Shown: positions 3,747 through 27,688, counted from the first letter of the stretch. The stretch is DNA of 64,000 nt from Sphingobium sp. (GCA_035555575.1 DATMGL010000008.1:78292-142291), one strand, 5' to 3'. Numbers and translations are program-made. Notes: generated by a model not told the origin, from the letters alone.

Positions 3747-3782
3747 AGAAATAAGGGGTACTGATTTGCTCGTTGCAGACCA

Positions 3783-6059: not shown

Positions 6060-6075
6060 GGCGCCCACTCCACGA

Positions 6076-7849: not shown

Positions 7850-7928
7850 AGCGAAGTTCTCCTCTGCTTGCGGTGGAGGAGCGCCGAGTGTAGAGTTTCG
7901 CTAACAACCAGCGTCTCCGGCGCTCCAG

Positions 7929-7959
7929 AAAGCCCTGCCGCGCCAACGGTGGGGCTTTT
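7929..7959. terminator. Putative bidirectional intrinsic terminator
   Basis: AAAGCCCTGCCG-CGCCAA-CGGTGGGGCTTTT is a 12-bp stem (2 G-U) with A and T tracts on either side. Confidence 0.45.
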
Positions 7960-8413
7960 CCGTATCTGCTTGGTAATTTATGATGATGAGCGGGTGAAAA
8001 GGGCGTGGAAGGTGTGCGACGGTCGGTCTAAGGGACTGGAACCGCCGACATGGGGCCGCCAAGGCCGCATCGGTCCTCCGCTACCATCAAACAATTGCCT
8101 GGCGAGACCATCCCAGCAGCGTTTCCACCTCTGCTGTCATTCGGGTCCAGCTCCCGCGACGCCATGATGCGCGCGATCTCCTGATCAGCCCCCTTCTTCG
8201 CCGGCCATATTGCGTCGATCCGGCGAGTGATATCCTGCGCCCTGCCATGGGTATCGACGCGCATGGCTGACCAGTGCAGGCCGGTCGCCGCTCCGGAACC
8301 ATGGTCCCCCGTCCCTCGCTACGATTTCTAGATTGGCGGCAAAGCGAGCCTAGCCGCCATGAGCCGGGTGTCCAATCACGGAGACGACCGCGGAGGCATG
8401 GCCTCCATCGGCC

Positions 8414-8869
8414 TCAGCGTCGGCCAGCGACCTCCGGAGCCGCGCCTCGCTGCCAGATTGGCGCATGAACCTGCACGGGGACCGATACTGTGCCGTCTGT
8501 GCCGGGCGCGGCTGTGTGGAACCCGCGTCGGGCATCAGGTATAGCCATGACATGGTCGATGGCGTCGATATCCCCGATCATGTCGAGCGACGCGCCGTTG
8601 ACGATGACCCGCGCTCGATAATGGCCATGCCCGTCCGGACGCGACATGTCCTCTGGCAACATGGTTGCGGGCGACAGACCGGGGCCGATGTCACCCGCAA
8701 TGGCGGTATCGCAGCGCTGCACGCTGATTATCCCCACCAGCAGGCCAGTCCCCAATATGGTGCCGCAGGCGGCCGCCATGACCAGCATCTCGACCCGCCC
8801 CCAGAAGCGGGCGTTCCGCATGCTCATGCTATGCGCTTCCCGAAATGCCTCGATCGGGCCGGCCGGCAT
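8414..8869 (-). CDS. Degenerate retropepsin-like (TIGR02281-type) aspartic protease-like membrane protein
   Basis: N-terminal TM, then DGHGHYRARVIVNGASLDMIGDIDA; the catalytic DTG/DSG appears as DID. Confidence 0.4.
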   Translation of the reverse strand: MPAGPIEAFREAHSMSMRNARFWGRVEMLVMAAACGTILGTGLLVGIISVQRCDTAIAGDIGPGLSPATMLPEDMSRPDGHGHYRARVIVNGASLDMIGDIDAIDHVMAIPDARRGFHTAAPGTDGTVSVPVQVHAPIWQRGAAPEVAGRR

Positions 8870-8875
8870 GGCGGC

Positions 8876-9514
8876 TCATCCATGATCGAGCAGCCGCAGC
8901 AGATCGGGTAGCCCCTCGGCACGCAACCCGTAGCTGCGCCGGCCGGTCTGGATCAGGTCGAATGGCAGGTTGTGATCGGCGAACCCGTTCCGCAGGCGGC
9001 AGATATAGACTTTGATGACTCGCCGGGAGCCGGATTTGACGCCTGCCGCATGAGCCAGCTCGTCCTGGGACACAAATTCACCGGCGGACATCAACAGCCG
9101 CAGCAAGACACCCGCTCCTACCTGCCCGAGTGACGGGAAGCGCTCGCGGATGCGCAGCCGGACGATTTCATCCCAGATCGGCGGTAGCGCCGCCGCCTTT
9201 CCCGACACCGCCATCTTGCGTTCCAACAAGGCCGAAAGCGCCTTGTCCGTTGGTAACGCAAATGCTTCGTCAAGCACGGATACCGGCTTGCCGTGCGGTT
9301 CTGACAACGGCGTTGGGCGACCATGGTCACCGGCGTCTGCTATGCCGTCGCCAAGCAGCGCCTTGAGCGTCGAGGTCGCCTCCTGGATCAACCCGAGAAG
9401 CTGGTTGACCTCGTCCCATCGGTCGGCGCGCCGGACCAGGCGCGCGGCTGGCGCCAAGACCTCATCCTGCGGAGCGCAGGCCTCGACCGGTCTTGAGGAA
9501 GCCCGGCCGCTCAT
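8876..9514 (-). CDS. OmpR/PhoB-type winged-helix DNA-binding protein without a receiver domain
   Basis: LLRLLMSAGEFVSQDELAHAAG...RRVIKVYICRLRNGF...IQTGRRSYGL is a Trans_reg_C pattern. ATGA overlap with the upstream gene. Confidence 0.7.
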   Translation of the reverse strand: MSGRASSRPVEACAPQDEVLAPAARLVRRADRWDEVNQLLGLIQEATSTLKALLGDGIADAGDHGRPTPLSEPHGKPVSVLDEAFALPTDKALSALLERKMAVSGKAAALPPIWDEIVRLRIRERFPSLGQVGAGVLLRLLMSAGEFVSQDELAHAAGVKSGSRRVIKVYICRLRNGFADHNLPFDLIQTGRRSYGLRAEGLPDLLRLLDHG

Positions 9515-12500
9515 CGGACAGCGCCTGTGTCACCGGCAATGGCGAGGGACGGCAAGCATGGGCGTGACGGCATAGCAGGGGCAGCGGCCGATGCGGCATT
9601 CTCCACCAAGGACGCCAGGCAATCCTTGATCCGCGTCCGCGTTTGCTCGGGCACGTCGTCGAGCGCCAATATGGCGTCGCAATATCGAGCGCATTGGCGA
9701 TACTCGCCGGCGAGCCGGGCATTCAGCGCGGTCTCTTCGAGCAGCCCATAGTGATAGATGCTCGAAAGCAGAAACAGGCCATCACGCTTCTTCCCTGCGA
9801 ACCGAAGGCCTTGCTCGCCCACCGCGAACCCCTCAGCGGGTCGCCCCGTCATTCGCAGCAGCCGGCTCAGACCATGATAAGCCTCCAGGCGATCCGGCGC
9901 GATCTCCATCGCGCGACGGAAGGTGGCCTCCACAACCGCCAGCGGCCAACCGAGCTGCGCTTGCAAATCGGCCGCGCGGTAGGTGGCGATGAACTTTTCC
10001 TCCGGCCAGCCATCCATGGCCGCGCGGCGCAGATAGGCGTCGAGCGCCTTGGTGAACTGACCGCCATCCTGATAGCTCTGCCCCAGATAGAAGAGATAGC
10101 GCGATCGCAGCTTCGGCTCCCGTTCACGGTCGAGCGCTCGCTCGAGCAGAGCCGCATCCTCCTCATATTTCCGGCGGTTGCGACTGCGCGCCCCTCGCGA
10201 ATGGGCCTTTATATAGAGGCCTTTTGCCGCCTGCCTGCCGACGCTATCGGCGGGTGGCTCGATATATTCGTGCACGACACCGCGATAGCGGAACGCCTTC
10301 GCATTGCGCAAAAGCTGAACGCGCGCAAAACGCAGCGCGCCATAATGGATGGTCAGATCGTAACTGTCGGCCACGAGGCCCGCCTTGAATGCCGTCGCGT
10401 CGAAGCCATCCTCCGGGACAAGCAGATCGTCGGCATCGAGCACCAACGCATAATCAATGTCGTGACAGGCCCGCAGATCGGCGAGAGCGCGGGTGCGGTT
10501 CCAGGCGAAATCGCGCCACGGCACCTCCACCACCGTGCCTGCAACCCGGTTTTCTGCCAGCCATTGCCGCACCACCTGCTGCGTGCCATCGGTCGAACCC
10601 GTATCCTGCACGAGCACGAAATCAACGATGCCCCGCACGCTGTCGAGGCTCTCCCGGATGATCGACGCTTCGTTCTTCGCGATCATGCACAGGCCGATGG
10701 ATCCGGGCCGGGGCGGCGCCTTGCGAGCATAGGGGGATGCAGACAGCGCCGCCGATGCCGCACGATCGACGCATAGCGGTCGATCATCATGCCAGGCCGC
10801 GAGTTGCGCCACCTCATCGGCCAGCATCTGCGCACCGGCCATCTCACGCCATGGCTCCACCGCCAATGTCCGCTGCCCAATGGTCTGCAGAGGCGCCAGC
10901 AGGCCCTTCATGCGCCGGCTTGCGCCCTCGGCCACGAAGAGCAGGTCGACCCGATCCAGCGGGGCCCCCGTCCTCAGCCAGCTTTCATCATCGACCAGCG
11001 CCACGATCGCATCGACGCCGGGGTCGACAAGCAACGCCTGCACCGCATCGAACGTCCCGGAACTGGCCAGATCGACAGGGCAACCATCGACGGAACAATG
11101 TGCCGGCAGGACGAGCCCGAGGGTCAGTCCGCGCGCGCGGAATGCCGCCACCATGATCTCCGGCGAGAGCATGTCGACGGGGCCCAGCGCAACCACCACG
11201 GGAATGCGGCCATCGCCCGCGAACAGGTCCGCGACCAGCCGGAACGGCACGTCAGGCGCCTCGATGGAAAATTGTGGCTGGGCGTTCACTTCGCAGATCG
11301 CCCCGCCCACCTCACGCCAGGACCGGCTGACATCCGGAATGATCAGGTCGATGCCGGCAATGTCCAGCCGCATGAGGCGTGCCGCGCGGATGGCCAGCGC
11401 CTGATTATCGGGATGGACCCGTGCGCGGACGTTGACCGGCGTGCCCCCCGACGAAATATTGGCGGCCGAACACAGACGCACGAACTGCCCCTGTGCCGGA
11501 ACATCGGTCAGGTCGAGGCCCTGCGTCGCGAGCAGAGCCTCGGCTTCCGCGTTGACTGAGAGCGGCGACATGAGGGACCAGTTCCGCCGCCCGCGCCGCA
11601 CATCCTGATTGGCAAGGTCGATCAGTTGCTGAACGGATGACGTGCCATCGCCATGCACCCCGGCCGGCTCGCGCATCGTCGCCCAGGCAACCTGCCCATG
11701 AACCACGCCAAGGCGCACATCCTCCCCCGGCACCTGTGTCTCGACCACGATCCGGGCGCTATGGCGGCGGGCCAGATCATAGGCCTGACCGACGGCCGCC
11801 TCATTATCGAGGCCCGCGGTCACGCCAACGCCGCCGTCGAGATCGGCCGGCTTGACCACGACAGGGAACCCCAGCGTCTGTGCGGCGGTTATTGCGGCTT
11901 CCCGCGTCGGCACGTCGACCTGCCGCGGCACCGGCACGCCACGTGCTGCCAGAAAACGGCTGGCGGCCCGTTTGTCCCGCGCGATGCGCGTGGCGATGGC
12001 CGATGTGCGATCGGTCACGCTGCTATCCACCCACCGCGACCGCGAGCCCCAGCCGAACTGGATCGCCCGACCGGAGACGGCGCATGACGGCACGCCCAGC
12101 CGATAGCCGGCATCGATCAGCAACCGCATATTCTGCCCGCCGGGCGCGAATCGGGCCAGCTGCGCAATCACCTGCTCCAGCGCGGCAGGCAGCTGCGCGA
12201 ACGAGCGGCCGGCGAGCCAGACGTTCAGGATGCGCATGACCTCGGGCGCGACGCCCGCCAGCAGCGCCGGATGGGGCGACGGGCAGATCAGCTGCATCGT
12301 CCATAATCCGGGCTTTTTCGAGCCCGCCGGGGACAGGCTCGTCGCCACCGGCCGGGCGAAAAGCGTCAGCCCCGCGCTTTCCTGAACCGAGGCCAGAAGA
12401 TGACCGAGAAGCTCGATGGCATAACGCGCTCGCGCCGGGAACCCGGCCTGCTCGACCGAGCCGGCGAAGGTGACACCCAGCCGATCGGCGGACAGCGGCG

Positions 12501-12837
12501 CCAGTTGCGCACGGATGGCGGGCAAGTCGTGCAAGGCATCCAGGCGCCGGATCTTGTCTTCGTCCACGACCAACTGGATGATCGCCGCCGATTGCGGCAT
12601 CGCCGGCATCACGCCCCGCATGACCTGTATCCGCCCCGGTTGCAACGCCTGCGGATGGCGGCCGCGGCCCTTCACCTCGGGCGGGAGCGCGGGTCTCCTG
12701 TCCGCGGTTCGCCGATGGACATGCGCCCGCTGCGGGACGGCAGGCGGGCGGCACGGTTCAACCATCGCCTCGCCCCCCGGCCCCAGTTTCACCGGACCCC
12801 GCGTCAATTCCTGTTCCGGCTCCTGCCCGATTTGCAC
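9511..12837 (-). CDS. Fusion of a cyanophycin-synthetase-like ATP-grasp ligase, a degenerate Mur-like region, a GT2 glycosyltransferase and TPR-like repeats
   Basis: ATP-grasp: RDKRAASRFL..GVPVP, GFPVVVKPADLDGGVGVT, ANISSGG, AGIDLI, CEVNAQP. GT2: LCMIAKNE, VQDTGSTDGT, LVLDADD, YRGVVHE. TPR-like: RYLFYLGQSY...ALDAY. The start is uncertain. Confidence 0.82.
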   Translation of the reverse strand: MQIGQEPEQELTRGPVKLGPGGEAMVEPCRPPAVPQRAHVHRRTADRRPALPPEVKGRGRHPQALQPGRIQVMRGVMPAMPQSAAIIQLVVDEDKIRRLDALHDLPAIRAQLAPLSADRLGVTFAGSVEQAGFPARARYAIELLGHLLASVQESAGLTLFARPVATSLSPAGSKKPGLWTMQLICPSPHPALLAGVAPEVMRILNVWLAGRSFAQLPAALEQVIAQLARFAPGGQNMRLLIDAGYRLGVPSCAVSGRAIQFGWGSRSRWVDSSVTDRTSAIATRIARDKRAASRFLAARGVPVPRQVDVPTREAAITAAQTLGFPVVVKPADLDGGVGVTAGLDNEAAVGQAYDLARRHSARIVVETQVPGEDVRLGVVHGQVAWATMREPAGVHGDGTSSVQQLIDLANQDVRRGRRNWSLMSPLSVNAEAEALLATQGLDLTDVPAQGQFVRLCSAANISSGGTPVNVRARVHPDNQALAIRAARLMRLDIAGIDLIIPDVSRSWREVGGAICEVNAQPQFSIEAPDVPFRLVADLFAGDGRIPVVVALGPVDMLSPEIMVAAFRARGLTLGLVLPAHCSVDGCPVDLASSGTFDAVQALLVDPGVDAIVALVDDESWLRTGAPLDRVDLLFVAEGASRRMKGLLAPLQTIGQRTLAVEPWREMAGAQMLADEVAQLAAWHDDRPLCVDRAASAALSASPYARKAPPRPGSIGLCMIAKNEASIIRESLDSVRGIVDFVLVQDTGSTDGTQQVVRQWLAENRVAGTVVEVPWRDFAWNRTRALADLRACHDIDYALVLDADDLLVPEDGFDATAFKAGLVADSYDLTIHYGALRFARVQLLRNAKAFRYRGVVHEYIEPPADSVGRQAAKGLYIKAHSRGARSRNRRKYEEDAALLERALDREREPKLRSRYLFYLGQSYQDGGQFTKALDAYLRRAAMDGWPEEKFIATYRAADLQAQLGWPLAVVEATFRRAMEIAPDRLEAYHGLSRLLRMTGRPAEGFAVGEQGLRFAGKKRDGLFLLSSIYHYGLLEETALNARLAGEYRQCARYCDAILALDDVPEQTRTRIKDCLASLVENAASAAAPAMPSRPCLPSLAIAGDTGAVR

Positions 12838-12922
12838 GGCCAGACATGCCGAATTTCGTTATCGTGACGATCATCGCCATCGTCCCCCCCTTTCAACGCC
12901 AGCGTGAAAGCCCGGCGGGCAT

Positions 12923-12960
12923 GGGGATCGCAGGGGTGATCCGCCACCCCTGCGATCCCC
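12923..12960. terminator. Strong hairpin just downstream of the giant gene
   Basis: GGGGATCGCAGGGGTG-ATCCGC-CACCCCTGCGATCCCC is a perfect 16-bp stem. There is no clear U tract, so it may be a stabiliser or attenuator. Confidence 0.55.
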
Positions 12961-12966
12961 CATCAA

Positions 12967-15900
12967 TCAACCGACATCGACAGGATGCATCATCAGCAGA
13001 TTGTCATAGGACGTGCGGCCAAACTCACCGCCCGTGGTGTGGATAATCGCCAGCAATGTCAGTTCATTGGCATCGATCGTGTGGTCGTTATTGCTGGACT
13101 GGGTATGAGCCCAGATCGCCGTGGTTGTCGGATCGTCATGCGCGTTGATCGCGAAGATCGAGCTGTTCTCGACATGATCCTCGCCATGGGCCGTCAGGTA
13201 GAACAGTTCTTCCAGACGTTCCGCCACCGCGTTCGCATTGGACAGCGCGCTCACATCCAGCCCGCTCACGCCACTGCTCACGAACCCGAATTCGTCGGTG
13301 TCGAGATCGAAGTGGGCGCCGGCGGTCGTGCCATGGACGTAATCGATACCGCCCACCACCGTGCTGGCTTCGAGTGCTCCGTCCAGAACGATCACATCGC
13401 GATCCACCTGGAAGTGGTTGATGACGTCCGGCCCCGCATTCGCCTGCGCCACCGTGGACTGGAACACATGATCCCAGGTGAAGGCGGCAAAACCGTCCTG
13501 GATATCGTCATGGTGGAACCCGTCTTCACCGGAATCGCTGTCCGTCGCTTCGCCATGATAGGCCCCGCTCACGGCCGTGTCCGATCCCACGCCCGGATCG
13601 ACGTCGTAATAATCCTCGCCATCCACCGTGCTGTGGCCATCCAGATGGTCCGTGTGGAGGCCATCGGCATCATAATAGCCGCTGGCGCCGCCATAATGAT
13701 CGTCGGAGCCCGTCGAGACATTCGCCTCATTATACGCCGGCGACCCGTCTGCGGCAGTGTAGCTTCCGTCAGGGTTCTGATGCGTCTGCTGGACGCCATG
13801 CTCGCCGCTACCGGCCGCATCGCCATAGAAGCTCGGGTCCGTGCCATCGCTGCCGTCACCGGCATTGACATAGCCCTGATCGATCCAGTCGGGACCGACG
13901 CCCTCCTTCATGTCGTTCCGGATGTCGAGACCGAGATCGGCAAACTCGCCATCGTCGAGCGCAAGCGTCCCGCCGTTGGTGACGTCCGTGAGCAGATAAC
14001 TGCCCGAGCCATCCTCGCCGCCCTGATAATGCAGGATCGCATCGTTGCGACCGGCCTGCCCGCCTGCGCCATCATGGCCATCGGCGATCGACGTCCCCTC
14101 CGCGCTGCCGGTGAAGTTCACGCTGCCGGCATGGATTTGCTCCGCCGTCACCGAGAACTCCAGCGTCGCGCCCTTGTAGATGGCCGCTTCGATCTCCGCC
14201 AGCGGGCCCAGTACCGACTGGCCATAGGCATCCGCCGTCAGCAGCAGGGTCACCGATGTTCCCGATGTGCCCACGGTGAAGATGCCATCGCCATCGCGTG
14301 AGCCCCGCTCGATCACGCCCAGCGCGTCGCCGGGGTGGTCAACGCCCAGTTTCGCGATCAGCGCATCCAGAATCACCGACGATCGTTCGGCCGTCGGGAT
14401 GCCGAAGAGATCCAGATCATGCTCACCCGGCATGCCATTCGTGCTGACGGTGATGCTCGTGGTCACGCCAAGCAGCGTGAGCTTAACCACACTGCCATCG
14501 GCGATATTGTCGAGCTTGGAGTTGTTGAACTCGACGACGATCTGCTGGAATTCGCTGCTCGTCGTGTCGACCCTGTCATAGGAGATGCCGCTGACGTTCA
14601 GCTGGTCCGGGCCGGCATGGGCACCGTGCACCACGATATTCGTGCCGTCGAAATCAACCTGGCCGATCGCCATATTGGCGTCCGTTCCGCCCAGATCGGT
14701 ATCGAGCAGCGTCAATATGGCCTCGCCGCCGGTCAGCGCCGTTCCTTCCAGAATGATCTTGCCGTCAGCGATGCTGGCCGTGACACCGTCGAAACTCTCC
14801 TCAAGCCAGTTCATGAAGTCGCTGACGGACGGCCGCGCGCCGCCCGGCTCCGCGACCAGAGCCGGGGTGAAGACATGAGTCTGCGGCACGTCGTCAATGG
14901 TCAGGGTGACGCTCACCTTGTCCATGGAGATTGCGTCATCCGCCGAGATCGCCCGATCATCGCCCGTCTGGATGACCAGCGCGCCGCTGTCGTCATGGTC
15001 GTCGCGGACGATCGCGGCGGTATGCTCGACAAAGCTGCCGTCGCGCGCCTCGATGATCGCCTGGGCGAGCGCACGGATCGTGTCGCTCTGCGTGCCCTGC
15101 ATGTCGGCGGTGATCGTCTGGCCCGCGACAGTGATGCTGACCTGGCCGCGGTCACCATCCTCATTGACCAGTCCGGTGGCGAAATCGACGTCGTCAAAGT
15201 CGATCGTGGTGATCTGCTCGCGCGCCGCCACGCTCATATGGATATCGGTCACGACGATCTCGCCATAGCCGTCCACCGCATCAGCGGCGGTGAAGTGGAG
15301 GCTGCCATCCTCACCCACCGTCACCGAGGAGAATGCGCCATACAGGCCGGCCTGCGGCTCATGCGCGCCATTCAGCGCGGCATCGAGACCGAGATCGCCA
15401 CTGTTTACACCCGTGATGCTCACGCTGATCGGCCCGAAACCCGGCTGGCTGACGATCACGATGGACGTGCCGTCCAGCCGGGCGCTCGCGACACCGGTCT
15501 GGCTCTCCAGGGCGCTCAGCAGATCGTCCAGCGTGCTCCCGGCCACGATGGCATTCACGCTGCCGCCGTCGCTGCCGGCAAAGTCAAAATCGAGCACCCA
15601 GTTCGCGCCCAGAACGCTGCTTCCATCCAGACTGCCAAAATCGCTCAGATCGATGACCAGTTCCGCATGATTCACCTGCTCCCAGATGGCGTCGCGCAGA
15701 TTCTGCAACGTCGTCTCGGAGTCGCCGTCATGCACGTTCGTCAGCTCGCCCTCGACGATCCCCACGACAGAGCCGCCAACGAGATACCAGCCAGCAAAAC
15801 TGTCGACCACGCCCTGCACATCGGCATCATAGACGATCGTCCAGCCGCCGTCGGCGAACGTCACGCTGTCCACCCCGCTCAGCGTTTCGATCCACTCGGC

Positions 15901-18900
15901 AAGGTCCTGCATGGTAGCCACGTCAGCACCCTGATCGGACAAGAAATCCTCTGACAGATGGAGGTCTTTTTCCGTCAGATAGTGGGTGAACTCCGCTGTC
16001 GTATATGACGTCCCGTCGATCGTGATGGCGAATGCAAAGTCGGCAGACCCGATGAAACTGCCCTCACCGGCGTCACGGCCATCAGGGCCGGTATATGTGG
16101 ACGATGCCGCCTTCATCACCATGTCGGTCTCGACCGTCACGCCATTGACCGTGATGCCGATCTTGCCGCCGTCATAATAATGGTCGGTATTATGGCCAAA
16201 AGCGGCGTCGGCTTCCTGCCGCACCGTCTCGCGGCTCAACACCGCCTCGGAGATGGCGAACTGTTGCTCTACCGCATCGGCCGATACGATCGTGATCGTG
16301 CCATCCGCCCCCAGCACGGCATGATCGATGATACCGTTGAGCGCGCCGTCGGAGCCGGCGACGCCGGACGCGGAGCCCGTATCGCTCGCCCAGCCCTGCC
16401 CCTCATCGCTGACGTCGAATGCGAGGTCATAGGCCACGTCGATGAAGGCGCCGGCGCCCGTGGCGTCGGTCGTGATGACGATATTGCCATCCTCGTCCAG
16501 CGTGGCCGTGCCGACGCCGGGCAGACCGGAAATATAGGCCAGGAAACCACCCAGATCGGTGAATTGGCTCAGGTTTTCCCCGAACGGGTCCCACACGAAC
16601 TGACCGTCCCCTATGTCAACCATGTCGCCGCCACCGGAATAGGTCACCGCGTCCTCGCCCATTCCGACCGTCACCGACCAGGAGGAAACGTAAAGGCCTT
16701 CGTCGAAATCCTCGCCGCCATTGGTGACGCCATCCCAGAGATTCTCGGAACTGGCCAGGACAACTCGTGCTGCCGCGTCGCTCGTCGGCCCGGCCGCAGC
16801 GCTATTAATCGCGTCGACCAGATTTTTCAGGCTCGCCTCGCGGTCGCCCGCGACCATATTGGCCTGGATGTGAACGATGCCACCTTCCTCGCCGGGCGTC
16901 GTGTCGATATCCAGCGAGATGATGCCGCCATCATAGTAATTGCCATCCGCGTCATAGTCCGCGGTCGCGATCTGGTGGACGCCTTCATAATCCATCGTCG
17001 CATCGGACACGGCGAATGTGTCCTTGCCGACCTGCGCCGCCGTGATGGTGATGGAGGTGCCATCGGCCTCGGCATGGCCGATGAAGGACAGCGTTGCAGG
17101 GTCGATCACCGACAGGTTGAAATCGACGCTCAGGACAGCATCGGTCAGGCCGATATCGATCTGTATTCCGCCGGTGATTATCGCATCCTTCGCGACCCTG
17201 ACGTCAAGGCCATCACCCGTCTTGTTCAGCGACCAGACGGCCTCTCCCGCATATTGCTCGTTCACCCAGGCGAGCAACTCGCCGAGCGTGTGAATATCCG
17301 GCAGTTCCTCACCATGATAGTCACCGCTCGGCAGGGAGACGCCGTTCACGGACATGTCGAGGACGATCTTCGAGTGGTCGAAGTCCGTGGTCAGCACAGA
17401 GTCGAGAGTCAGCGCGGCATGACCATCCATGTCGAAGGCATAATGGATGACCTGCCCCGTGGCCGCGTTGATCGCATCGGCCAGCGCCTGCGCGGTCCCC
17501 TCGGGATCGCCGATGGTGACGCCGTTGGCGATGTCGACCCGGCCGCTGCCCTCGTTCAAGATGAGTTGAAGCGCACCGACACCATCGCCAGGCTCATGGG
17601 CATATTCTGCCCCGCCGATCAGATCGATCGAACCGATGCTGCCCGCTTCATAGGTTATCGTGATGCCATCTGGACCCGCAACCGCGCTCGCCACCCCGTC
17701 GAGGCTCGCGATCCAGTCCGCCAGATCGGCAAATGTCGCTTTATCGCTCCCATCGACACCTTCCCCATTCACGAGGGAAAGGGAGGGTGCCAGATAGGTG
17801 ACGAAGTTGCTTGCGGTATATGTCCGGCCATCCACCGTGATCGAGATAGCGAACGGAGCGCTGTCATCATCGCCGATATAGTGATCCGCACTATAGCTAT
17901 CCGTGGCCAGCGTAGAGACCATCCTCGTCACCATGTCGGCCGACACCGTCACCGGCGTTCCGTCGATCAGTCCGCCGTCACCATCGCTGATGCGCGGCAC
18001 GAAGGTGGCGTGGACCTTGCCGCCCTCGAAATAGACGTTGGCGAAGCGGTCGGCCGCATCGGCATGCGCGCCGGCCTGCGCGCTATAGCTGAGCGCATCC
18101 TCCAGCGTGATCGTCGCGGTCTGCTCCTCGCCGCGATAATCCTGCATGACCTTCGTCACATCCAGCGCGTCGGGCGATTCCGCCGAGGCAACCAGGAGGA
18201 CATTCACCGGACCCGGCACGATGCTCGGCAGATATTCCAGCGTTGCGCTCTCGAGCAGCAGGGCGCCGGCGCTGTCTTCAGCGATCGCCGCGTTGATCGC
18301 CGTCACCAGCGCCGCGATCGAGCCATAGGCGCTGCCGGCCACCATGTCCGCATCGATGGTGACGCCGTTGATCGTCACATGCAGCTGCCCGCCCGCATAA
18401 TAATCCGCGTCAACCTCGCTGAAGCTGAGTGTCAGCTCCTGCTGGATGCCGGGCTTGTCGATCTCGCCATTGTCGATGGTGAAGGTCGGTGCATCATCGT
18501 CCGTGTCCGGCACGAAACCGGTGAAGGTGAGCGTGGTGCCGTCGCTCGCCACGGCCTTGATCAGATCGACGAGCGATCCGCCGACGGCCGCCGTGTCGAC
18601 CGCCTCATGCGCCGTGTCGCTGATCGTGATGCCGGTTATCGAGACGCTGTTCTTCTCCGCCTCGGTTCCGCGCACCTCGCCGGTGATGACGAGATCGCCG
18701 TCCTTCAGCGCAACGGACTGCACGCCCCCGACGGCGCGGATCGCGTCCATCATCTCGCCCATGGTCGTGCTGCCCTCATGGGTGAGGGTGACCGCAACGC
18801 CATTGATGGTCAGCGTCAGCGCATAGCCGCCGAGCACGGCCTCCTCGCTGCCCTGACCGTCCAGATCGATCGTCGAATAGGCCGCCGTGATCGCGGTCAT

Positions 18901-21900
18901 CGCATCATCGGCCATTGCCGCCTCAATGGCGGCGCGCAGGGCCTCGACCGACGCCACCGGATCACCCTCGACGATATTGGCCGTGATCGTCCGGCCGCTG
19001 ATCGTCACGCGCAGCTCACGGTCGAATTCCGTGGTGTGGCCATTGTTGGTGGCACCGGGATAATCATCCTCGCCCGCGGCGAAGGTGATCGACGCGATCG
19101 CCCCTTCGCCCGGATTCTCGATGGCGCCCTCATGATGATAGCCACGGCCAGCGCCCGCACCGACATGCGTGTCCTGCGTATAGACGCCACCTGTGAGCGT
19201 CAGCCTGCCCGTATCGCCATCCACCTTGATCTGGGCCGCATCGCGATAGCGAATGGCGTCCTGAACGCGTTCGGCGGCCGGGACGAGCGCGCAAGGGTCC
19301 TCAAGAAACGCCTCATAGGCCGGTGCATAGGCCAGGATGGTCGTCGTGCCGGCAAATGTCAGCGCGCCGTCAATCTGGAGATAATCCTCGCTGGTCAGCC
19401 GGAACGTCTCGCCGCCGCGCAGGCCCGTCGAGCGGACATCGGCCGGCATCACCACATCATTCTCGGCCAGCAGGTAGAGATAATCGGTCGCGGAGAGGAA
19501 ATAATGGCCGGCCTGCACCGTATAGGCGCCATTGACCAGATCATCCTGATACACGAAGCCGTCCAAGCTGCCATCGGCACGATAGCTCAGGCCGATCGCC
19601 ACGCGGGCAGCGTCCACCTGCTTCGCCATCACCGCATCGGCAAGATGCCCAAGCGCCTCTGTGGGCGTCTCCCCGTTATCGCCCGTCGTGTAACTATAGA
19701 CATGGCCGTTCACCGTGATGGTGATCTTGCTGCCTTCGCGATATTTGTCCGCATCCGTGGAGAAATTGAGCGCGACGACGCTCGCCGTCCGCCCGTCATA
19801 GATCGACTCATAGACGATCGCGTCGCGGCTATTGTCATTATAGGTGAGGTTGATCGTATCGGCGCCGCGCCCGCCAACGATGATTTCATCGCCGCGGCCG
19901 GCATTGTAGATATCGTTGCCGTCACCCAGTTCGCTGCGCAGGTTCACCGACAGATTGAACGAGGTCATCGAGATGATGTTGTCCAGCTCGTCGCCGCGCG
20001 CGATCACCTGCCCTGCATTCTGAAGCGCTGCGGCCTGATGCGGGTCCGCCAGCGCCGCCTGCACCGAGGTGTAATAATCGCGGATCGTGTAATCGACATG
20101 GCTGCCCAGCGCGAAGCCGGCTGCGGCCAGCGCCGCGGCCTGCGCCACCGTCAGCGGCGTGGTGATGTCCAGCATCACATCGGCCGGATCATGCCCCTGG
20201 ATGCGCGCCATGAACTCCGGCGAGATCACCGAACCGGTAAAGGCGTTCAGCGCATCCAGCGTCTCGGTATAGCGACTGATGAACTCATCGGCCGTCGCGA
20301 CACCGCTGTCGTTCAGCACATCGGGTCCATGTTCACCGCTCAGTGCGACGCGCAGGGCATTCTCGCTGACCACCAGCGGGACCTGATATTCGAGCACGAC
20401 CTGGTTCGACAGGTTGAAGGACGCCGTCTCGCCGCCGCCAAGCGCATGCGCCATCAGCCAGTCCGGATCGAAACCGGTGGCCTTTCCAAACAGAAGATCG
20501 ATAAAATCGTCCGTCCGGATGAAATATTGGCCGTCCGGAACGACGAAATCACCATTGGCATCGAGATCGTCCAGCGTGATGAAGGACTGAACCTGATCGG
20601 ACAGTTCCCGAAGCATAAGACCAACGACGAGGGGAGCATCGCCTTCACCGAAAATCGACGCCGCGCGCATGGTCAGTTCCAGCGGGGTGTTGTCGATGAT
20701 GAAGCCGGGATTGTCGGCAACGGCCGCAGAATGCCGGTCGAGCGCATTGCCCGCTGCATCGGTGATGCCGGAATCTTCGCCGAGGAACAGCGCATCCTCG
20801 CCAATGCTGATGCCGGTGGCGTCCCGATCCGTACCGTTCACCGTGTAGGAGAAGGTCAGCGTGTCGGTGCCCGCGCCGCCGACCAGCGTGGCCTGGACGA
20901 TGTGCGTATCTTCGCCATCGCCGATCGTGAGGGCGAGCGTGGGGTGACCCGACACGAGCACGACCTCGGAGAATTTGACCATCGCCGTGACCACATCGCC
21001 GGCATTGAGATGGCCATCGGCATCGGCCCCCGTGGCCGACGCCAGATACATCTCGAGAATGGTGGGCGCATCATGGTCGCCCAGTCCTCCGATCGCCTCG
21101 TTGATCGCGTCGATCTGGGACTGGAGATCGGACAGCCCTTCACCGCCGAGTTCCGCCAGCGCCGCGATGGACTCGGTGAGCGTGGCCAGCTGACCCGCAA
21201 GGCCGGCAATATCGTCGATCGCGAGATCGCCGATCTGCGCCTGCACCGCCGCGATCTGCGCGCCGACATAGGAGACGACCGTGTCCGTGATCCCGGCAAG
21301 CTGGCTTTCAAGTGCCGCGACGCGGTCGCCAAGCGCGCCGCTGCTCGCGTCCGTCGCGGACTGCAGTGCCGCAATCGCGCCATTCAAGGCTGTCAACGTG
21401 CTCACGAGATCGCCGACATCGTTGATGCCGAGGCCATCGATCCGGCTTTCCAGTTCGCTCACGCGATCCGCCAGTTCCGGAATGCCCGGATAGGAAATCG
21501 CGGCCAGCCCGGCCGGTATGGCGACGACATGACCATCCGGATCATGGAGCGTCACGGTCGTGCCGATCAGCATCGGCTTGTCCGCCGCGGATGACAGGAA
21601 CGCATCGAGCGCGTGCGACTGGATCTGCCCGGCGGTCAGGTTGATCGTGAGATGACCCATGCCGGTCACGCTGATGACGGACGCCATCGCCTCAAACTGC
21701 GCCAGCGTGAGGATCAGCGTCGAGTTGACGATGAATTCCACGCCTGGCTGCACCGTGACGGCCGTCATGTCGACCCCGCCCCGGCTCACCTCGATGCTGT
21801 CGAAACCGGCCAGGTTGCTCTGCGCTGTCAGCTTGACGACATCATTGGCGTCATCCGGGAAGACGAAGCGGATCGCCCCCACGCCCGTCAGCCCCGACGT

Positions 21901-22761
21901 GTCGAGCGTCAGCAGGCGCGTATCGGCGCCTGGGGTCGCGCTTTCGATGATCAGCGTCAGCGTATCATTGAGACCGCCGCCACCATCGCCGCTGAACACC
22001 ATCTTGGCCGCGTTGGGCGCGTTGAGCGTGAACGTGTCGCTGGTCGCCGCGCCATTGATCGTGATGCGGACCTCGCCACCATCCGGCACATGCAGCACCT
22101 TGGTCGAAATGGCGCCCACCACCGTAGCGGCCGCCTTGCCGTCACGGGAAAAAATCGCCTCGTCGCCGGCATTGAGCGTGATCGAGATCGGCCCGGTCGC
22201 GCTGCCGCCAAAGCTCACAGCGCCGTCCGCGTCGTCCGAAACGGTGAAGGTTGGCTCCGGCGTCTTGCCGCCATCGTCGACGGGCGGGCTCGCATCATCG
22301 CCGCCTCCTCCGCCGGAGACGGCGGCCGCAATGCCGCCGAGCGCCCCAAGACCCAGCAGGCCCAGCAGCATCGGGCTGCCCCCGCCATGCTGCCCACCCT
22401 CATGCCGCTCCGCCTCGCCCGCCGACGCGCCAGCCGATTGCGCATCGCCAGCCTCATCCTGCGCGCCATCGCCGGCCGCCGCGGCGGCGTCGACCGCCTG
22501 CGCACTGACAAGCGCCGCAGCCAGGCCGCCGACCGCACCGGTCAACACCAGCGCGACATCCCCATCGGGCGTGGCGAATTTGAGCAGCAGGCCCTGCCCG
22601 GATTCGTCCGCGGCATGGGCACGCACCGGCGCGCCCGTCTCACTATCGACAATCTCGACCTTGCCTCCCTCGGGCACAGCCAGAGCCGCCACCGCTTTTC
22701 CGAGACGCTTTTCGATGATCCGGCCGCCTTTTGCGGGCACGATGCGAGCGACGAGAGCCAT
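12967..22761 (-). CDS. Giant (~3260 aa) acidic repetitive surface protein/adhesin, putative T1SS substrate (BapA/LapA-like)
   Basis: N-terminal hydrophobic/Gly stretch LLGLLGLGALGGIAAAVSGGGGG, an Ig-like domain, the RTX-like GDGNDIYNAGRGDEIIVGGRGADTI and many internal repeats. Divergent from the T1SS genes. The ORF is open to TTG 22782; ATG 22761 is preferred. Confidence 0.85.
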   Translation of the reverse strand: MALVARIVPAKGGRIIEKRLGKAVAALAVPEGGKVEIVDSETGAPVRAHAADESGQGLLLKFATPDGDVALVLTGAVGGLAAALVSAQAVDAAAAAGDGAQDEAGDAQSAGASAGEAERHEGGQHGGGSPMLLGLLGLGALGGIAAAVSGGGGGDDASPPVDDGGKTPEPTFTVSDDADGAVSFGGSATGPISITLNAGDEAIFSRDGKAAATVVGAISTKVLHVPDGGEVRITINGAATSDTFTLNAPNAAKMVFSGDGGGGLNDTLTLIIESATPGADTRLLTLDTSGLTGVGAIRFVFPDDANDVVKLTAQSNLAGFDSIEVSRGGVDMTAVTVQPGVEFIVNSTLILTLAQFEAMASVISVTGMGHLTINLTAGQIQSHALDAFLSSAADKPMLIGTTVTLHDPDGHVVAIPAGLAAISYPGIPELADRVSELESRIDGLGINDVGDLVSTLTALNGAIAALQSATDASSGALGDRVAALESQLAGITDTVVSYVGAQIAAVQAQIGDLAIDDIAGLAGQLATLTESIAALAELGGEGLSDLQSQIDAINEAIGGLGDHDAPTILEMYLASATGADADGHLNAGDVVTAMVKFSEVVLVSGHPTLALTIGDGEDTHIVQATLVGGAGTDTLTFSYTVNGTDRDATGISIGEDALFLGEDSGITDAAGNALDRHSAAVADNPGFIIDNTPLELTMRAASIFGEGDAPLVVGLMLRELSDQVQSFITLDDLDANGDFVVPDGQYFIRTDDFIDLLFGKATGFDPDWLMAHALGGGETASFNLSNQVVLEYQVPLVVSENALRVALSGEHGPDVLNDSGVATADEFISRYTETLDALNAFTGSVISPEFMARIQGHDPADVMLDITTPLTVAQAAALAAAGFALGSHVDYTIRDYYTSVQAALADPHQAAALQNAGQVIARGDELDNIISMTSFNLSVNLRSELGDGNDIYNAGRGDEIIVGGRGADTINLTYNDNSRDAIVYESIYDGRTASVVALNFSTDADKYREGSKITITVNGHVYSYTTGDNGETPTEALGHLADAVMAKQVDAARVAIGLSYRADGSLDGFVYQDDLVNGAYTVQAGHYFLSATDYLYLLAENDVVMPADVRSTGLRGGETFRLTSEDYLQIDGALTFAGTTTILAYAPAYEAFLEDPCALVPAAERVQDAIRYRDAAQIKVDGDTGRLTLTGGVYTQDTHVGAGAGRGYHHEGAIENPGEGAIASITFAAGEDDYPGATNNGHTTEFDRELRVTISGRTITANIVEGDPVASVEALRAAIEAAMADDAMTAITAAYSTIDLDGQGSEEAVLGGYALTLTINGVAVTLTHEGSTTMGEMMDAIRAVGGVQSVALKDGDLVITGEVRGTEAEKNSVSITGITISDTAHEAVDTAAVGGSLVDLIKAVASDGTTLTFTGFVPDTDDDAPTFTIDNGEIDKPGIQQELTLSFSEVDADYYAGGQLHVTINGVTIDADMVAGSAYGSIAALVTAINAAIAEDSAGALLLESATLEYLPSIVPGPVNVLLVASAESPDALDVTKVMQDYRGEEQTATITLEDALSYSAQAGAHADAADRFANVYFEGGKVHATFVPRISDGDGGLIDGTPVTVSADMVTRMVSTLATDSYSADHYIGDDDSAPFAISITVDGRTYTASNFVTYLAPSLSLVNGEGVDGSDKATFADLADWIASLDGVASAVAGPDGITITYEAGSIGSIDLIGGAEYAHEPGDGVGALQLILNEGSGRVDIANGVTIGDPEGTAQALADAINAATGQVIHYAFDMDGHAALTLDSVLTTDFDHSKIVLDMSVNGVSLPSGDYHGEELPDIHTLGELLAWVNEQYAGEAVWSLNKTGDGLDVRVAKDAIITGGIQIDIGLTDAVLSVDFNLSVIDPATLSFIGHAEADGTSITITAAQVGKDTFAVSDATMDYEGVHQIATADYDADGNYYDGGIISLDIDTTPGEEGGIVHIQANMVAGDREASLKNLVDAINSAAAGPTSDAAARVVLASSENLWDGVTNGGEDFDEGLYVSSWSVTVGMGEDAVTYSGGGDMVDIGDGQFVWDPFGENLSQFTDLGGFLAYISGLPGVGTATLDEDGNIVITTDATGAGAFIDVAYDLAFDVSDEGQGWASDTGSASGVAGSDGALNGIIDHAVLGADGTITIVSADAVEQQFAISEAVLSRETVRQEADAAFGHNTDHYYDGGKIGITVNGVTVETDMVMKAASSTYTGPDGRDAGEGSFIGSADFAFAITIDGTSYTTAEFTHYLTEKDLHLSEDFLSDQGADVATMQDLAEWIETLSGVDSVTFADGGWTIVYDADVQGVVDSFAGWYLVGGSVVGIVEGELTNVHDGDSETTLQNLRDAIWEQVNHAELVIDLSDFGSLDGSSVLGANWVLDFDFAGSDGGSVNAIVAGSTLDDLLSALESQTGVASARLDGTSIVIVSQPGFGPISVSITGVNSGDLGLDAALNGAHEPQAGLYGAFSSVTVGEDGSLHFTAADAVDGYGEIVVTDIHMSVAAREQITTIDFDDVDFATGLVNEDGDRGQVSITVAGQTITADMQGTQSDTIRALAQAIIEARDGSFVEHTAAIVRDDHDDSGALVIQTGDDRAISADDAISMDKVSVTLTIDDVPQTHVFTPALVAEPGGARPSVSDFMNWLEESFDGVTASIADGKIILEGTALTGGEAILTLLDTDLGGTDANMAIGQVDFDGTNIVVHGAHAGPDQLNVSGISYDRVDTTSSEFQQIVVEFNNSKLDNIADGSVVKLTLLGVTTSITVSTNGMPGEHDLDLFGIPTAERSSVILDALIAKLGVDHPGDALGVIERGSRDGDGIFTVGTSGTSVTLLLTADAYGQSVLGPLAEIEAAIYKGATLEFSVTAEQIHAGSVNFTGSAEGTSIADGHDGAGGQAGRNDAILHYQGGEDGSGSYLLTDVTNGGTLALDDGEFADLGLDIRNDMKEGVGPDWIDQGYVNAGDGSDGTDPSFYGDAAGSGEHGVQQTHQNPDGSYTAADGSPAYNEANVSTGSDDHYGGASGYYDADGLHTDHLDGHSTVDGEDYYDVDPGVGSDTAVSGAYHGEATDSDSGEDGFHHDDIQDGFAAFTWDHVFQSTVAQANAGPDVINHFQVDRDVIVLDGALEASTVVGGIDYVHGTTAGAHFDLDTDEFGFVSSGVSGLDVSALSNANAVAERLEELFYLTAHGEDHVENSSIFAINAHDDPTTTAIWAHTQSSNNDHTIDANELTLLAIIHTTGGEFGRTSYDNLLMMHPVDVG

Positions 22762-22839
22762 TTTTAGCAACCACCTTTCCAAACAGGAATCCCCACCGCC
22801 TATTGGGCGGATAGATATGATGGCTGGCTAGCACTGAGA

Positions 22840-23115: not shown

Positions 23116-24438
23116 GTGGCGATATTCCGTTATATTATTTGCAGGAAATCGCATCTGTGGCCGACTGCCACGCCGCTCGCCGCGCTCCTGCTTGTCGGTG
23201 CGCAGGCGGCGGATGCGGCGCCCGTGATCCAGCCGCCTGCCGCTATCCCGCAGGACGCCCCCGTTAACCCCGCCGATGATCCGTATCTGGACATGCTTTT
23301 GAAGCAGGCCGTGGCATCGCATCCGTCCATCGGCGCGGCGCGTGCAGCCATAAGGGCGGCGGGCGCCGATATCCGCTCCGCGCACTGGCAGGCCTTTCCC
23401 GCCTTCACCGTGCAGGGGCTTTTGCTCAACGACAGCACCAACGGGCGTCAGGCCAGCCTGGTCGTTGACCAGCCGATCTGGACCGGCGGACGGATCTCCA
23501 GTTCGCTCAGGCGCGCGCGCGCGCAGCACCGGGCAGCACTTGCCGGCTATCAGCAGGCCGTGCTCGACATCATGGTCGGCCTGTCCCGGAGCTACCGCGA
23601 CTATCATCGCCTCAACAGCAAGTTCGCCATCCTGCAGGACAGTCTGACCCGCCACCGGGAGCTGGTCGCCACGATGGAGCGGCGGCTCGCGCAGGAGATC
23701 AGCCCGCTGGCCGATCTCGAACTCGCGCGCAGCCGCACCGCCCAGATCGAACAGCAGGTCGCAACCACCGTCGCGCAGCGCCTGACCACACTCCAGAAAC
23801 TGCGTGAACTGGTGGGCGATCCGGATGTTCGCCCGGGACCGCCCCCGGCCGGCGGACCGCTCGAGCCGCTCGACCTGTCGGAGCTGGTCATGCGCACGCT
23901 CGACTTCGACCCCGGCCGCCAGCGCCTGATCGCCGAAGCGGGCGCGGCGCGCGCAGAGGCAGCCGGCGCAAGGGCATCGATCTTTCCGCAGCTGAGCGGC
24001 CAATACTCCTATGACGACGCCTATGGCCATCGCGTCGGCCTGGTGCTCAAGGCGCAATCGGGCGGCGGCTTTTCGAGCTTCTCCAACGCGGCGGCCGCGC
24101 GGGAACGGCAGGATGCAGCGGAGCTGCGCATTTCCGCCACCGAGCGCGATCTGCGCGAACGCACGACCGCCGATCTCGCCGACTATGAGTCAGCCCGCAG
24201 CCGCATTGCCAGCACTCGCATCGCGCGCGACGCCGCCGATAATGTGACGGCCTCCTACATTCGCCAGTTCACCAGCGGCCGGCGCACCTGGCTGGATGTG
24301 ATGAACGCCGTGCGCGAAGCCACCACGGCGCAAAGCGAAGCCATCGACGCCGAGGCCAGCGCGACGGAAGCGCGCGACCGCCTGCTGATGCGCAGCGGCA
24401 GCTGGCCCTTCCCTGCTGACAGCCAGGACACGCCATGA
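23116..24438 (+). CDS. TolC-family outer membrane protein of a type I secretion system
   Basis: Signal-like N-terminus, QPIWTGG, and GRRTWLDVMNAVRE (TolC/LapE pattern). First gene of a three-gene operon. Confidence 0.9.
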   Translation: MAIFRYIICRKSHLWPTATPLAALLLVGAQAADAAPVIQPPAAIPQDAPVNPADDPYLDMLLKQAVASHPSIGAARAAIRAAGADIRSAHWQAFPAFTVQGLLLNDSTNGRQASLVVDQPIWTGGRISSSLRRARAQHRAALAGYQQAVLDIMVGLSRSYRDYHRLNSKFAILQDSLTRHRELVATMERRLAQEISPLADLELARSRTAQIEQQVATTVAQRLTTLQKLRELVGDPDVRPGPPPAGGPLEPLDLSELVMRTLDFDPGRQRLIAEAGAARAEAAGARASIFPQLSGQYSYDDAYGHRVGLVLKAQSGGGFSSFSNAAAARERQDAAELRISATERDLRERTTADLADYESARSRIASTRIARDAADNVTASYIRQFTSGRRTWLDVMNAVREATTAQSEAIDAEASATEARDRLLMRSGSWPFPADSQDTP

Positions 24439-26534: not shown

Positions 26535-26536
26535 TC

Positions 26537-27688
26537 ATGGCCAGCGTTTCACGCAAATCCTCCACCTCCATCATCGCGCTGACCGCACTGGCCGTGGCGA
26601 GCTTTTTCACCTGGGCCGGCTTTGCCGAAATCGATCAGGTGAGCCGCGCGACCGGACAGGTCATTCCCGCCGGGCGCGTGCAATTGCTGCAAAGCAATGA
26701 TGGCGGTGTCATCGGCGCGCTTTTGGTGAAGGAAGGCGACACCGTTCGCAAGGGGCAGACGCTGGTGCTGCTCAACAAGGTGAAGATCGCGGCATCAGTG
26801 CGCGAAAGCAGCGCGAAGGTGGCCGCGCTCAAGGCGTCGCGCGCCCGGATTGAGGCGGAACTGTTCGACCGCCCCTTGAACTTTCCGGGCGATATCGGCG
26901 ATTTTCCGGATTTTATCGAGAACCAGCGCCAGCTCTTCAGCAAACGGCGCGGCGCGCAGCAGCAGGACATCGCCGCGCTGCGCACCATGCTGGACCTCGC
27001 CCGCCAGGAGCTGGACATGAACATGCCGCTGCTCGCGCATGGCGATGTCAGCCGGTCCGAGATCATCCGGCTGCAACGATCGGTCACGGATATTCAGGCG
27101 CAGATCGCCAACAAGCAGAACAAATATCTGCAGGATCTGCAAACCGACTATACCCGCGCCGAGGAGGAATTGGTGACCGCCGTGCAGACGCTCACCCAGC
27201 GCCTCGAATCCCTGAACGACACGGAAATCGCGGCGCCGACCGACGGCATCGTGAAGAATGTGCGCCTCACCACGATTGGTGGCGTGCTGCGGCCCGGCGA
27301 CGAGGTCATGCAGATCGTGCCGACCGGCGAGCAGCTGATCATCGAAGCCAAGGTGTCGCCGGCCGACATCGCCTATGTGCAGGAAGGCCAGACCGCCTCG
27401 GTCAAGTTCGATGCTTATGACCCGTCCATCTTCGGCTCCGCCACCGGCAAGGTGACCTACATCAGCCCGGACACGCTGACCGAGCAGAAGGGCAATGGCG
27501 AACAGGTCTATTACCGGGTTCACATCCTCGCCAACACCGACACCATGCATAAACGGCCGGGCAAGCTGATCGCGATCCAGCCGGGCATGACGGCGACCGC
27601 GGAAATCCTGACCGGCCGGAACACGGTGCTCAAATTCCTCGCCAAGCCCCTCATCAAGACAATCTCGGAGTCCTTCGGCGAACGATAG
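26537..27688 (+). CDS. HlyD-family T1SS periplasmic adaptor
   Basis: GGVIGALLVKEGDTVRKGQ, IAAPTDGIV, IQPGMTATAEILTG. Confidence 0.93.
   Translation: MASVSRKSSTSIIALTALAVASFFTWAGFAEIDQVSRATGQVIPAGRVQLLQSNDGGVIGALLVKEGDTVRKGQTLVLLNKVKIAASVRESSAKVAALKASRARIEAELFDRPLNFPGDIGDFPDFIENQRQLFSKRRGAQQQDIAALRTMLDLARQELDMNMPLLAHGDVSRSEIIRLQRSVTDIQAQIANKQNKYLQDLQTDYTRAEEELVTAVQTLTQRLESLNDTEIAAPTDGIVKNVRLTTIGGVLRPGDEVMQIVPTGEQLIIEAKVSPADIAYVQEGQTASVKFDAYDPSIFGSATGKVTYISPDTLTEQKGNGEQVYYRVHILANTDTMHKRPGKLIAIQPGMTATAEILTGRNTVLKFLAKPLIKTISESFGER

Follow-up and report, generated by a model that had tools for sequence, protein, structure and literature searches.

The stretch of Sphingobium sp. DNA analysed here, a 64,000-nucleotide (nt) window from a non-pathogenic soil sphingomonad, carries on its minus strand a gene in which a ligase related to the cyanophycin synthetases (CphA) is joined to a glycosyltransferase. 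Directly upstream lies the gene of a giant acidic protein that is presumed to be a type I secretion substrate. An earlier note on this DNA had described one open reading frame (ORF) with an intact ATP-grasp, a Mur-like region without its P-loop, a glycosyltransferase family 2 (GT2) domain with a DADD motif and a helical tail, and our analysis bears this out, coordinates included. The fusion ORF and its domains, the last of which resembles tetratricopeptide repeats (TPR), are as follows:

9511..12837, minus strand: fusion ORF (ligase and glycosyltransferase), a single continuous frame of 1108 amino acids (aa) from the first GTG
12151..12648, minus strand: CphA-type N domain, residues ~64-229, matched by Foldseek to CphA2 7ta5 and also to CphA1 entries
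11218..12150, minus strand: ATP-grasp G domain, residues ~230-540, with the motifs KPADLDGGVGV and EVNAQPQFS
10723..11217, minus strand: truncated Mur-ligase-like M domain without P-loop, plus two linker helices, residues ~541-705
10198..10704, minus strand: GT2 (GT-A) catalytic domain, residues ~712-880, with the motifs DTGSTDGT, DADD and HE
9583..10191, minus strand: TPR-like helical repeat domain, residues ~883-1085, from the structural model

The predicted structure of the fusion protein is of high confidence (AlphaFold2 with 65 aligned sequences; mean predicted local distance difference test (pLDDT) 91, predicted template modelling (pTM) score 0.87), and disorder is confined to residues 1-58 and 1090-1108. 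Because residues 1-58 are modelled as disordered and the homologs in our alignment begin later than the GTG at 12837 of the window, the true start is probably the ATG at 12765, the GTG at 12675 or the TTG at 12645. Foldseek comparison with the PDB divides the model into a cyanophycin-synthetase part and a glycosyltransferase part. The best global fit of the first ~620 ordered residues is CphA2 7ta5 (TMt 0.77 over 622 columns), with CphA2 8fxi at TMt 0.69, and the last ~390 residues fit the glycocin S-glycosyltransferases ThuS and SunS (E 1e-12, TMt 0.54-0.68).

Three Pfam families (RimK, Dala_Dala_lig_C and CPSase_L_D2) each match the ATP-grasp above their cut-offs at residues 286-523 (nt ~11980-11270), and among PDB chains the G domain matches CphA1 7lgm at E 2e-59; no TupA-like Pfam match was found in the fusion protein. 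The top NCBIfam match is cyanophycin synthetase NF010623 (E 2e-90, residues 215-632, covering profile positions 141-568), which scores 304.2 bits against a curated cut-off of 877, and TIGR02068 (cyanophycin synthetase 1) gives 264.3 bits against a curated cut-off of 850, the two profiles being matched at positions 126-568 only. Residues ~541-705 align with the beginning of the CphA1 M domain; the domain stops after ~165 residues, and the alignment places LGPVDML at the position of the CphA1 GTNGKT P-loop. In the glycosyltransferase part, PF00535 (Glycos_transf_2) matches residues 717-809 (33.2 bits, cut-off 23.3), and the GT2 core matches Listeria GmaR (22ao) at E 6e-8 and E 5e-9 in two sequence searches. 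TPR matches are weak, whether from Pfam (residues 913-1012) or to the TPR sequence of OGT; the model has an all-helical repeat of nine helices, each of 12 to 22 residues, at 883-1085. Based on the Foldseek and sequence matches, the protein consists of a CphA2-like N and G domain with a relic M domain, two linker helices, and a protein glycosyltransferase of the GT2-TPR type.

The layout of this second part is that of GmaR, the Listeria flagellin O-GlcNAc transferase, and of SunS and ThuS: a GT2 domain with CMIxKNE...DTGSTD...DxD...HE, followed by a helical, TPR-like substrate-binding domain. These enzymes are cytoplasmic and act on proteins or peptides. In the Foldseek alignments, SunS and ThuS share only 14-17% identity with the fusion. 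Whereas the targets of GmaR, SunS and ThuS are flagellin or a bacteriocin precursor, the presumed target of the fusion is a giant type I substrate, and the fusion adds a ligase.

The fusion is a genuine protein. A search of 5.8 billion proteins returned nine further full-length proteins of the same architecture from different samples (50-66% identity), three more fusion-bearing records came from a reverse search that started from the giant protein, and a GTDB scan added one fusion only, in a Sphingomonadales metagenome-assembled genome (L016), its other returns being the GT2-TPR half alone. An artefact of sequencing or assembly, which the earlier note had named as fatal to its proposal, is excluded by the occurrence of the same fusion in independent metagenome and genome records and by the single, continuous, high-confidence model. 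Across ten aligned full-length fusions (49-64% identity to the window protein), the invariant residues include K289, K329, E366, R375, R389, N460, D497, E516 and N518 in the ligase, and D745 (of DTGSTD), D801-A-D803-D804 and H856-E857 in the GT2 domain. The ATP/Mg-binding and catalytic ligase residues tested are also invariant across a clade of unfused ligases described below. In a maximum-likelihood tree of the G domain the fusions are monophyletic (support 97/72), which indicates one fusion event. Judged by this sequence conservation, the fusion is under selection, with both catalytic centres conserved.

The ligase half has departed from the cyanophycin synthetases. Active-site residues reported for TeCphA1 (PMC9427784) and StCphA2 (bioRxiv 10.1101/2023.04.15.537035) were mapped onto the fusion through HMMER alignments to PDB chains. 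The catalytic Arg is kept (TeCphA1 R309, fusion R375), as are the binders of the incoming Asp β-carboxylate (R323 to R389 and N394 to N460) and the neighbouring Ser (S396 to S462). The Glu required for TeCphA1 activity, E215 (PMC9427784), has become Arg (R284); the E215/D212 segment was mapped through CphA1 chains, the only chains to match this short query. By analogy, E215 is taken to bind the Arg branch of cyanophycin, as does StCphA2 D212, an acidic residue that salt-bridges the Arg of β-Asp-Arg (bioRxiv 10.1101/2023.04.15.537035). The P-loop His of the G domain (TeCphA1 H267), which stabilises the acyl-phosphate in CphA1 (PMC9427784), is replaced by G335, and the loop reads DGNHGRG in CphA1, GHKGIG in GcCphA2 and StCphA2, and DLDGGVG in the fusion. 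Finally, NAAPGFR has changed to NAQPQFS, in which R458, a binder of the Asp α-carboxylate, corresponds to S524 (Ser or Thr among the fusions). The net charge of the N domain is +5.3 in the fusions and -2.3 in CphA1-like proteins, weak evidence that may fit an anionic rather than an Arg-rich acceptor.

These changes set the fusion apart from each of its known relatives. CphA2 (7ta5, 8fxh/8fxi) has the same plan of N domain, ATP-grasp G domain and truncated, P-loop-less M domain, and shares the ATP/Mg site and the equivalents of R309, N394 and S396, but differs in the P-loop (GHKGIG against DLDGGVG), in NAxPG against NAQPQ, and probably in its acidic Arg-binder, since the CphA1 counterpart E215 is Arg in the fusion. 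The fusion also carries a glycosyltransferase, and its host is not a cyanobacterium; no match to cyanophycinase (TIGR02069) and no second CphA-like gene were found in the 99.99%-complete genome. The earlier note had pointed to CphA2 as an enzyme in which the ATP-grasp alone is active, which agrees with the published work (bioRxiv 10.1101/2023.04.15.537035), but the substrate site of the fusion ligase departs from that of CphA2. CphA1 (7lgm, 7wac, 7lg5) provides the best G-domain sequence matches and has the Asp side-chain binders R323 and N394 in common with the fusion; it differs in its active M domain and in having E215, H267 and R458 where the fusions have Arg, Gly and Ser or Thr, and the fusion scores about one third of the family cut-offs. 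RimK and LysX/ArgX (Foldseek E 1e-8 to 1e-10) share the ATP-grasp chemistry, in which a protein provides the carboxylate and an amino acid the amine, but they are small, consist of one domain with no counterpart of the CphA N and M domains, and act on ribosomal protein S6 or the LysW carrier instead of a secreted protein.

Unfused proteins of 610-720 aa (P0019-P0045) share the DxDGG and NAQPx signature of the fusions and form a clade with them. In a ligase tree built with CphA1-like and CphA'-like sequences and with no canonical CphA2 sequence included, the fusions nest within this DxDGG clade (95/86), apart from the CphA1 and CphA' types. In sequence terms, the DxDGG clade is an uncharacterised branch, and the ligase is neither a CphA1 nor a canonical CphA2.

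The genes and features that surround the fusion are listed below:

12967..22782, minus strand: giant acidic protein of 3271 aa, presumed type I secretion substrate, directly upstream of the fusion
23116..24438, plus strand: TolC-family outer-membrane factor (PF02321, E 2e-38)
24435..26534, plus strand: type I secretion ABC transporter (ABC_membrane and ABC_tran matches)
26537..27688, plus strand: HlyD-family membrane fusion protein (HlyD_3 and HlyD_D23 matches)
8876..9514, minus strand: 212-aa protein with a C-terminal OmpR/PhoB-type winged helix (Trans_reg_C, E 9e-5, below cut-off)
8414..8869, minus strand: predicted single-pass membrane protein of 151 aa (one helix), last gene of the cassette
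12923..12960, minus strand: perfect 16-bp GC-rich hairpin without a U tract, 7 nt after the stop codon of the giant gene

The giant protein is rich in acidic and hydroxylated residues (15.4% Asp+Glu, 15.3% Ser+Thr), poor in basic ones (3.5% Lys+Arg) and contains one Cys; it belongs to no Pfam or NCBIfam family. The TolC, ABC and HlyD genes (23116-27688) are divergent from it. On sequence features, namely this adjoining transporter, the acidic and Cys-poor composition and a C-terminal domain, it is presumed to be a type I secretion substrate. Within the C-terminal 570 aa (13000-14685, minus strand), for which no Pfam or NCBIfam model gave a match, the orthologs have highly conserved blocks rich in Asp, Gly and Tyr, such as QNPDGSYTA..DGSPA, HYGG.SGYYD.DGLHTDHLDG, GFAAFTWD and DVINNFQVD.

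Downstream, the ATG of the winged-helix gene overlaps the TGA of the fusion (ATGA). Homologs of the 151-aa protein are present in L007, L016, L098 and L141; the homologs have faint matches to retropepsin-like aspartic proteases, and by eye the window copy is without a canonical DTG or DSG. The hairpin between the giant gene and the fusion folds strongly (-50 kcal/mol over 86 nt, z -5.1) and is not called by a terminator scan. It may be an attenuator that lowers read-through into the fusion gene, or may stabilise the upstream mRNA.

The fusion and the giant protein are found together in other genomes. The gene directly upstream of the fusion in L001, L002, L003, L004/L005 and L006 has the same orientation and is either giant or cut off by the contig end, and by tblastn these giants are orthologs of the window protein, with 37-59% identity that includes the C-terminal 570 residues. 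The reverse metagenome search, for which an alignment of the C-terminal domain of the giant was used, gave the same result, as each close ortholog was followed by the fusion (L138 (= L003), L139/L140 and L141). Thus, the link to a presumed secreted giant that the earlier note had drawn from one locus holds for each close ortholog found (window, L001-L006, L138-L141). The winged-helix gene follows the fusion in L001, L003, L007, L016, L098 and L141, and the 4-nt overlap is retained in L003 and L007. Extra GT4/GT1 genes (plus a sulfotransferase) lie between the giant gene and the fusion in L002 and L006. No fusion was found with more distant relatives of the C-terminal domain; behind one of these (L145) come ABC and HlyD genes, an arrangement in favour of reading the giant C-terminus as a secretion domain. 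Among 40 related genomes of the genus and order, none had either the fusion or the giant protein.

Each half of the fusion was also examined in its other contexts. GT2-TPR modules with 40-50% identity are common in Mesorhizobium, Bradyrhizobium, Methylobacterium, Methylococcaceae and others (234 loci), and are often fused to Anp1-like, GT25, GT1, sulfotransferase or cupin domains. In L031 (4086-14956) and L055 (4193-12839) the module adjoins a collagen-repeat protein (Pfam Collagen, E 3e-144 and 1e-79) and ABC/HlyD genes of a type I secretion system (T1SS). Of 79 loci (L016-L094) scanned for (G-X-Y)x8, 47 had a collagen-like ORF no more than 10 kb away, two of them Pfam-confirmed. One collagen-repeat neighbour carries DUF4347. 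Neighbours of the collagen-repeat and T1SS kind occur in Mesorhizobium, Methylobacterium, Bradyrhizobium and other genera. From these neighbourhoods, the module behaves like an enzyme that glycosylates secreted proteins of repetitive sequence. By gene content, the loci that combine GT2-TPR, a collagen-like protein and a T1SS have the look of a system devoted to glycosylating secreted collagen-like proteins, and our literature searches found no description of such a system with GT2-TPR.

Unfused relatives of the ligase half were surveyed in 800 Pseudomonadota genomes, which yielded few members in mixed contexts. The closest unfused relative of all, P0019, is the sister of the fusion clade; its gene comes immediately after that of an RTX-repeat protein which ends in a type I secretion C-terminus and has no homology to the window giant (L097). 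P0037 (L096) lies behind a protein that is at least 1997 aa long and contains 21.7% Asp+Glu. The L096 region (1-19233) also contains a SapC-family gene, three paralogous CphA2-like ATP-grasp genes, an AMP-binding enzyme, an RTX subtilisin and, by eye, a P-loop protein resembling dethiobiotin synthetase; from this gene content it may be a multi-ligase modification cluster. In L146 (9012-17740; G608, of the window's own family), a methyltransferase-ligase pair adjoins an EF-hand acidic protein and T1SS ABC/HlyD genes, and in L095 (6859-13059) such a pair lies between a TolC gene and a surface-repeat protein whose repeats we take to be HAF-like. Elsewhere, the unfused DxDGG ATP-grasp is found with glycosyltransferases: it is followed by a GT2 in L131 (8993-15603), in an operon with an enzyme of the type I phosphodiesterase/nucleotide pyrophosphatase family and with a TonB-dependent receptor behind, and in L133 (5893-10896) it shares an operon with a GT1 and an enzyme of the same phosphodiesterase family. 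For the DxDGG clade as a whole, a link to secreted proteins is therefore suggestive, not general.

Taken together, these data suggest that the fusion is a cytoplasmic two-enzyme modifier of the upstream giant protein that would combine glycosylation with ATP-dependent amino-acid ligation, a proposal built on sequence comparison to which we give an even chance. The protein has no signal peptide or membrane segment, and for this reason we place it in the cytoplasm, where the giant protein would be its substrate while still unfolded and not yet exported by the type I system. Within the fusion, the TPR-like domain would hold the unfolded chain and present its Ser/Thr-rich segments to the GT2 domain, which would transfer a sugar from a nucleotide sugar, most likely onto Ser or Thr. 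In the ATP-grasp half, ATP would phosphorylate a carboxylate of the macromolecule to an acyl-phosphate, as in CphA, RimK and LysX, and the amino group of a small amino acid would then be joined to the activated carboxylate. The giant protein might thereby gain one or a few Asp-like residues on its carboxylates, whether on acidic side chains or at the C-terminus, and would then be exported by the neighbouring TolC/ABC/HlyD system. Addition of an Asp-like residue to the protein is modestly favoured over a sugar-acid target, since the Asp side-chain binders are kept and the positions that bind the Arg of cyanophycin are now basic or neutral. The idea of a dual modifier, first raised in the earlier note, gains from the architecture, the conserved active sites, the synteny and the secreted neighbours of each half. 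For the giant protein as substrate and for both chemistries, we infer rather than observe.

Several points count against this proposal. The fusion loci are without exception orthologous copies of a single accessory cassette, and the linkage to the giant protein therefore amounts to about one evolutionary observation. The contexts of L131 and L133 are equally compatible with a protein and with a glycan or small molecule as the target, and neither the P0027 context nor most loci of genus g60 have a large secreted neighbour. We are aware of no type I secretion substrate whose glycosylation is well documented, and bulky modifications may be restricted by the narrow type I export channel. Orthologs of the giant protein do not share a conserved extreme C-terminus, so recognition of a specific C-terminal residue is not favoured. 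Lastly, the window copy has Cys at residue 456 (nt 11470-11472), where nine of the ten fusion homologs have Arg. The equivalent site in StCphA2 is R389, which contributes to substrate binding, and the R389A mutant retains half of the activity (bioRxiv 10.1101/2023.04.15.537035).

The proposal might extend beyond the fusion. The DxDGG branch as a whole could consist of ATP-grasp ligases that add amino acids, as short aspartyl branches or tails, to acidic type I substrates, with the sphingomonad fusion yielding two decorations before export; we put this forward tentatively, as a possibility well short of an even chance.

The main rival to Asp addition is amidation of a sugar acid: the GT2-TPR half would add an acidic sugar (e.g. 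a uronic acid) to the giant protein, and the ATP-grasp would amidate the sugar carboxylate with an amino acid. In our view this is unlikely, although it is the strongest of the alternatives. A fusion of a GT2 with an ATP-grasp amidoligase is documented in C. jejuni HS:2, where the ATP-grasp domain of Cj1438 amidates glucuronate in the capsular polysaccharide (PMC11800379). Like the protein studied here, Cj1438 combines GT2 and ATP-grasp in one polypeptide and amidates a carboxylate of the glycoconjugate on which its GT2 works, and it is the closest architectural precedent; in contrast, its domain order is reversed, its ATP-grasp is TupA-like, its target is the capsule, and it has neither a TPR domain nor a link to a secreted protein. 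A glycan-directed ligase would also suit the pairing of the unfused ligase with glycosyltransferases in L131 (GT2) and L133 (GT1), the fusion of GT2-TPR elsewhere to glycan-elaborating enzymes (GT25, Anp1-like, GT1, sulfotransferase, cupin) and the extra glycosyltransferase and sulfotransferase genes in L002 and L006. However, the ATP-grasp of the fusion is of the CphA type, not TupA-like, and retains the polymer-anchoring N domain, the relatives in L096 and L146 adjoin secreted acidic proteins with no glycosyltransferase in view, and the cassette showed no gene for uronic-acid biosynthesis (a search of the whole genome for such a gene was not made).

Alternatively, the fusion might make a free product, namely a small molecule or a glycosylated oligomer or polymer of amino acids, and be either a passenger of the island or the source of a product that is co-exported with the giant. 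CphA-family enzymes are polymerases, some unfused relatives adjoin membrane-transporter-like genes, a TonB receptor or housekeeping genes, and hitch-hiking is possible because the fusion loci are all orthologous. Nevertheless, the order of giant gene, fusion and coupled regulator is kept down to 37% identity (giant) and 49% (fusion), the nearest solved glycosyltransferase relatives (SunS, ThuS and GmaR) act on peptides or proteins, and each half is independently linked to secreted proteins. We therefore consider a free product doubtful, somewhat more so than a sugar-acid target.

A further alternative is that the CphA-like half has no catalytic role and serves as a scaffold for oligomerisation or docking of the glycosyltransferase, which would leave the GT2 as the only active enzyme. 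CphA2 does form dimers and hexamers, the M domain is already a relic, the acyl-phosphate-stabilising P-loop His of CphA1 is Gly in the fusion, and the window copy carries C456 in place of the family Arg. This explanation is nonetheless improbable, given that the tested ATP/Mg-binding and catalytic residues are invariant both in the aligned fusions, at 49-64% identity, and in the unfused clade, and that the DxDGG(V/I)G loop is a conserved signature rather than a sign of decay. An ordinary CphA1 or CphA2 that stores nitrogen and was fused to a glycosyltransferase by chance is scarcely credible, even though the best NCBIfam and PDB sequence matches are cyanophycin synthetases and the Joint Genome Institute (JGI) labels the unfused relatives 'cyanophycin synthetase': genuine cyanophycin synthesis is contradicted by the family scores (304 and 264 bits against 877 and 850), by the active-site changes (an inactive M domain, Glu to Arg at the Arg-binding position and loss of the P-loop His common to CphA1 and CphA2), by the separate clade in the tree and by the genome without cyanophycinase.

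The proposed modification of the giant protein has a conceptual parallel in HlyC/RtxC, a dedicated cytoplasmic enzyme encoded beside a type I substrate that modifies it before export, but with an unrelated fold and chemistry (acyl-ACP-dependent lysine acylation, ACP being acyl carrier protein). To our knowledge, lysine acylation of RTX toxins is the only well-known dedicated modification of type I substrates. Our literature searches found nothing on the fusion, on the DxDGG clade or on an ATP-grasp or glycosyltransferase dedicated to a type I secretion substrate, and nothing relevant on CphA3, on a 'cyanophycin synthetase-like' family or on an ATP-grasp with type I secretion; the name CphA is shared with a β-lactamase. 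They agree with the earlier note that no system of this architecture has been described, with the capsular fusion Cj1438 (PMC11800379) as the related case. This suggests that, while each half is a known kind of enzyme, the combination is undescribed.

Giant adhesins and RTX proteins that leave the cell by type I secretion are widespread. If the proposal is true, glycosylation and amino-acid ligation on one substrate would be a new layer in the building of bacterial surface proteins, and how such modified chains cross the narrow secretion channel would become a question. The pipeline label 'cyanophycin synthetase' is probably wrong for the DxDGG branch. Cyanophycin synthetases are being engineered as polymerases, and a relative whose acceptor site is altered and apparently binds anions might prove valuable as a new catalyst.

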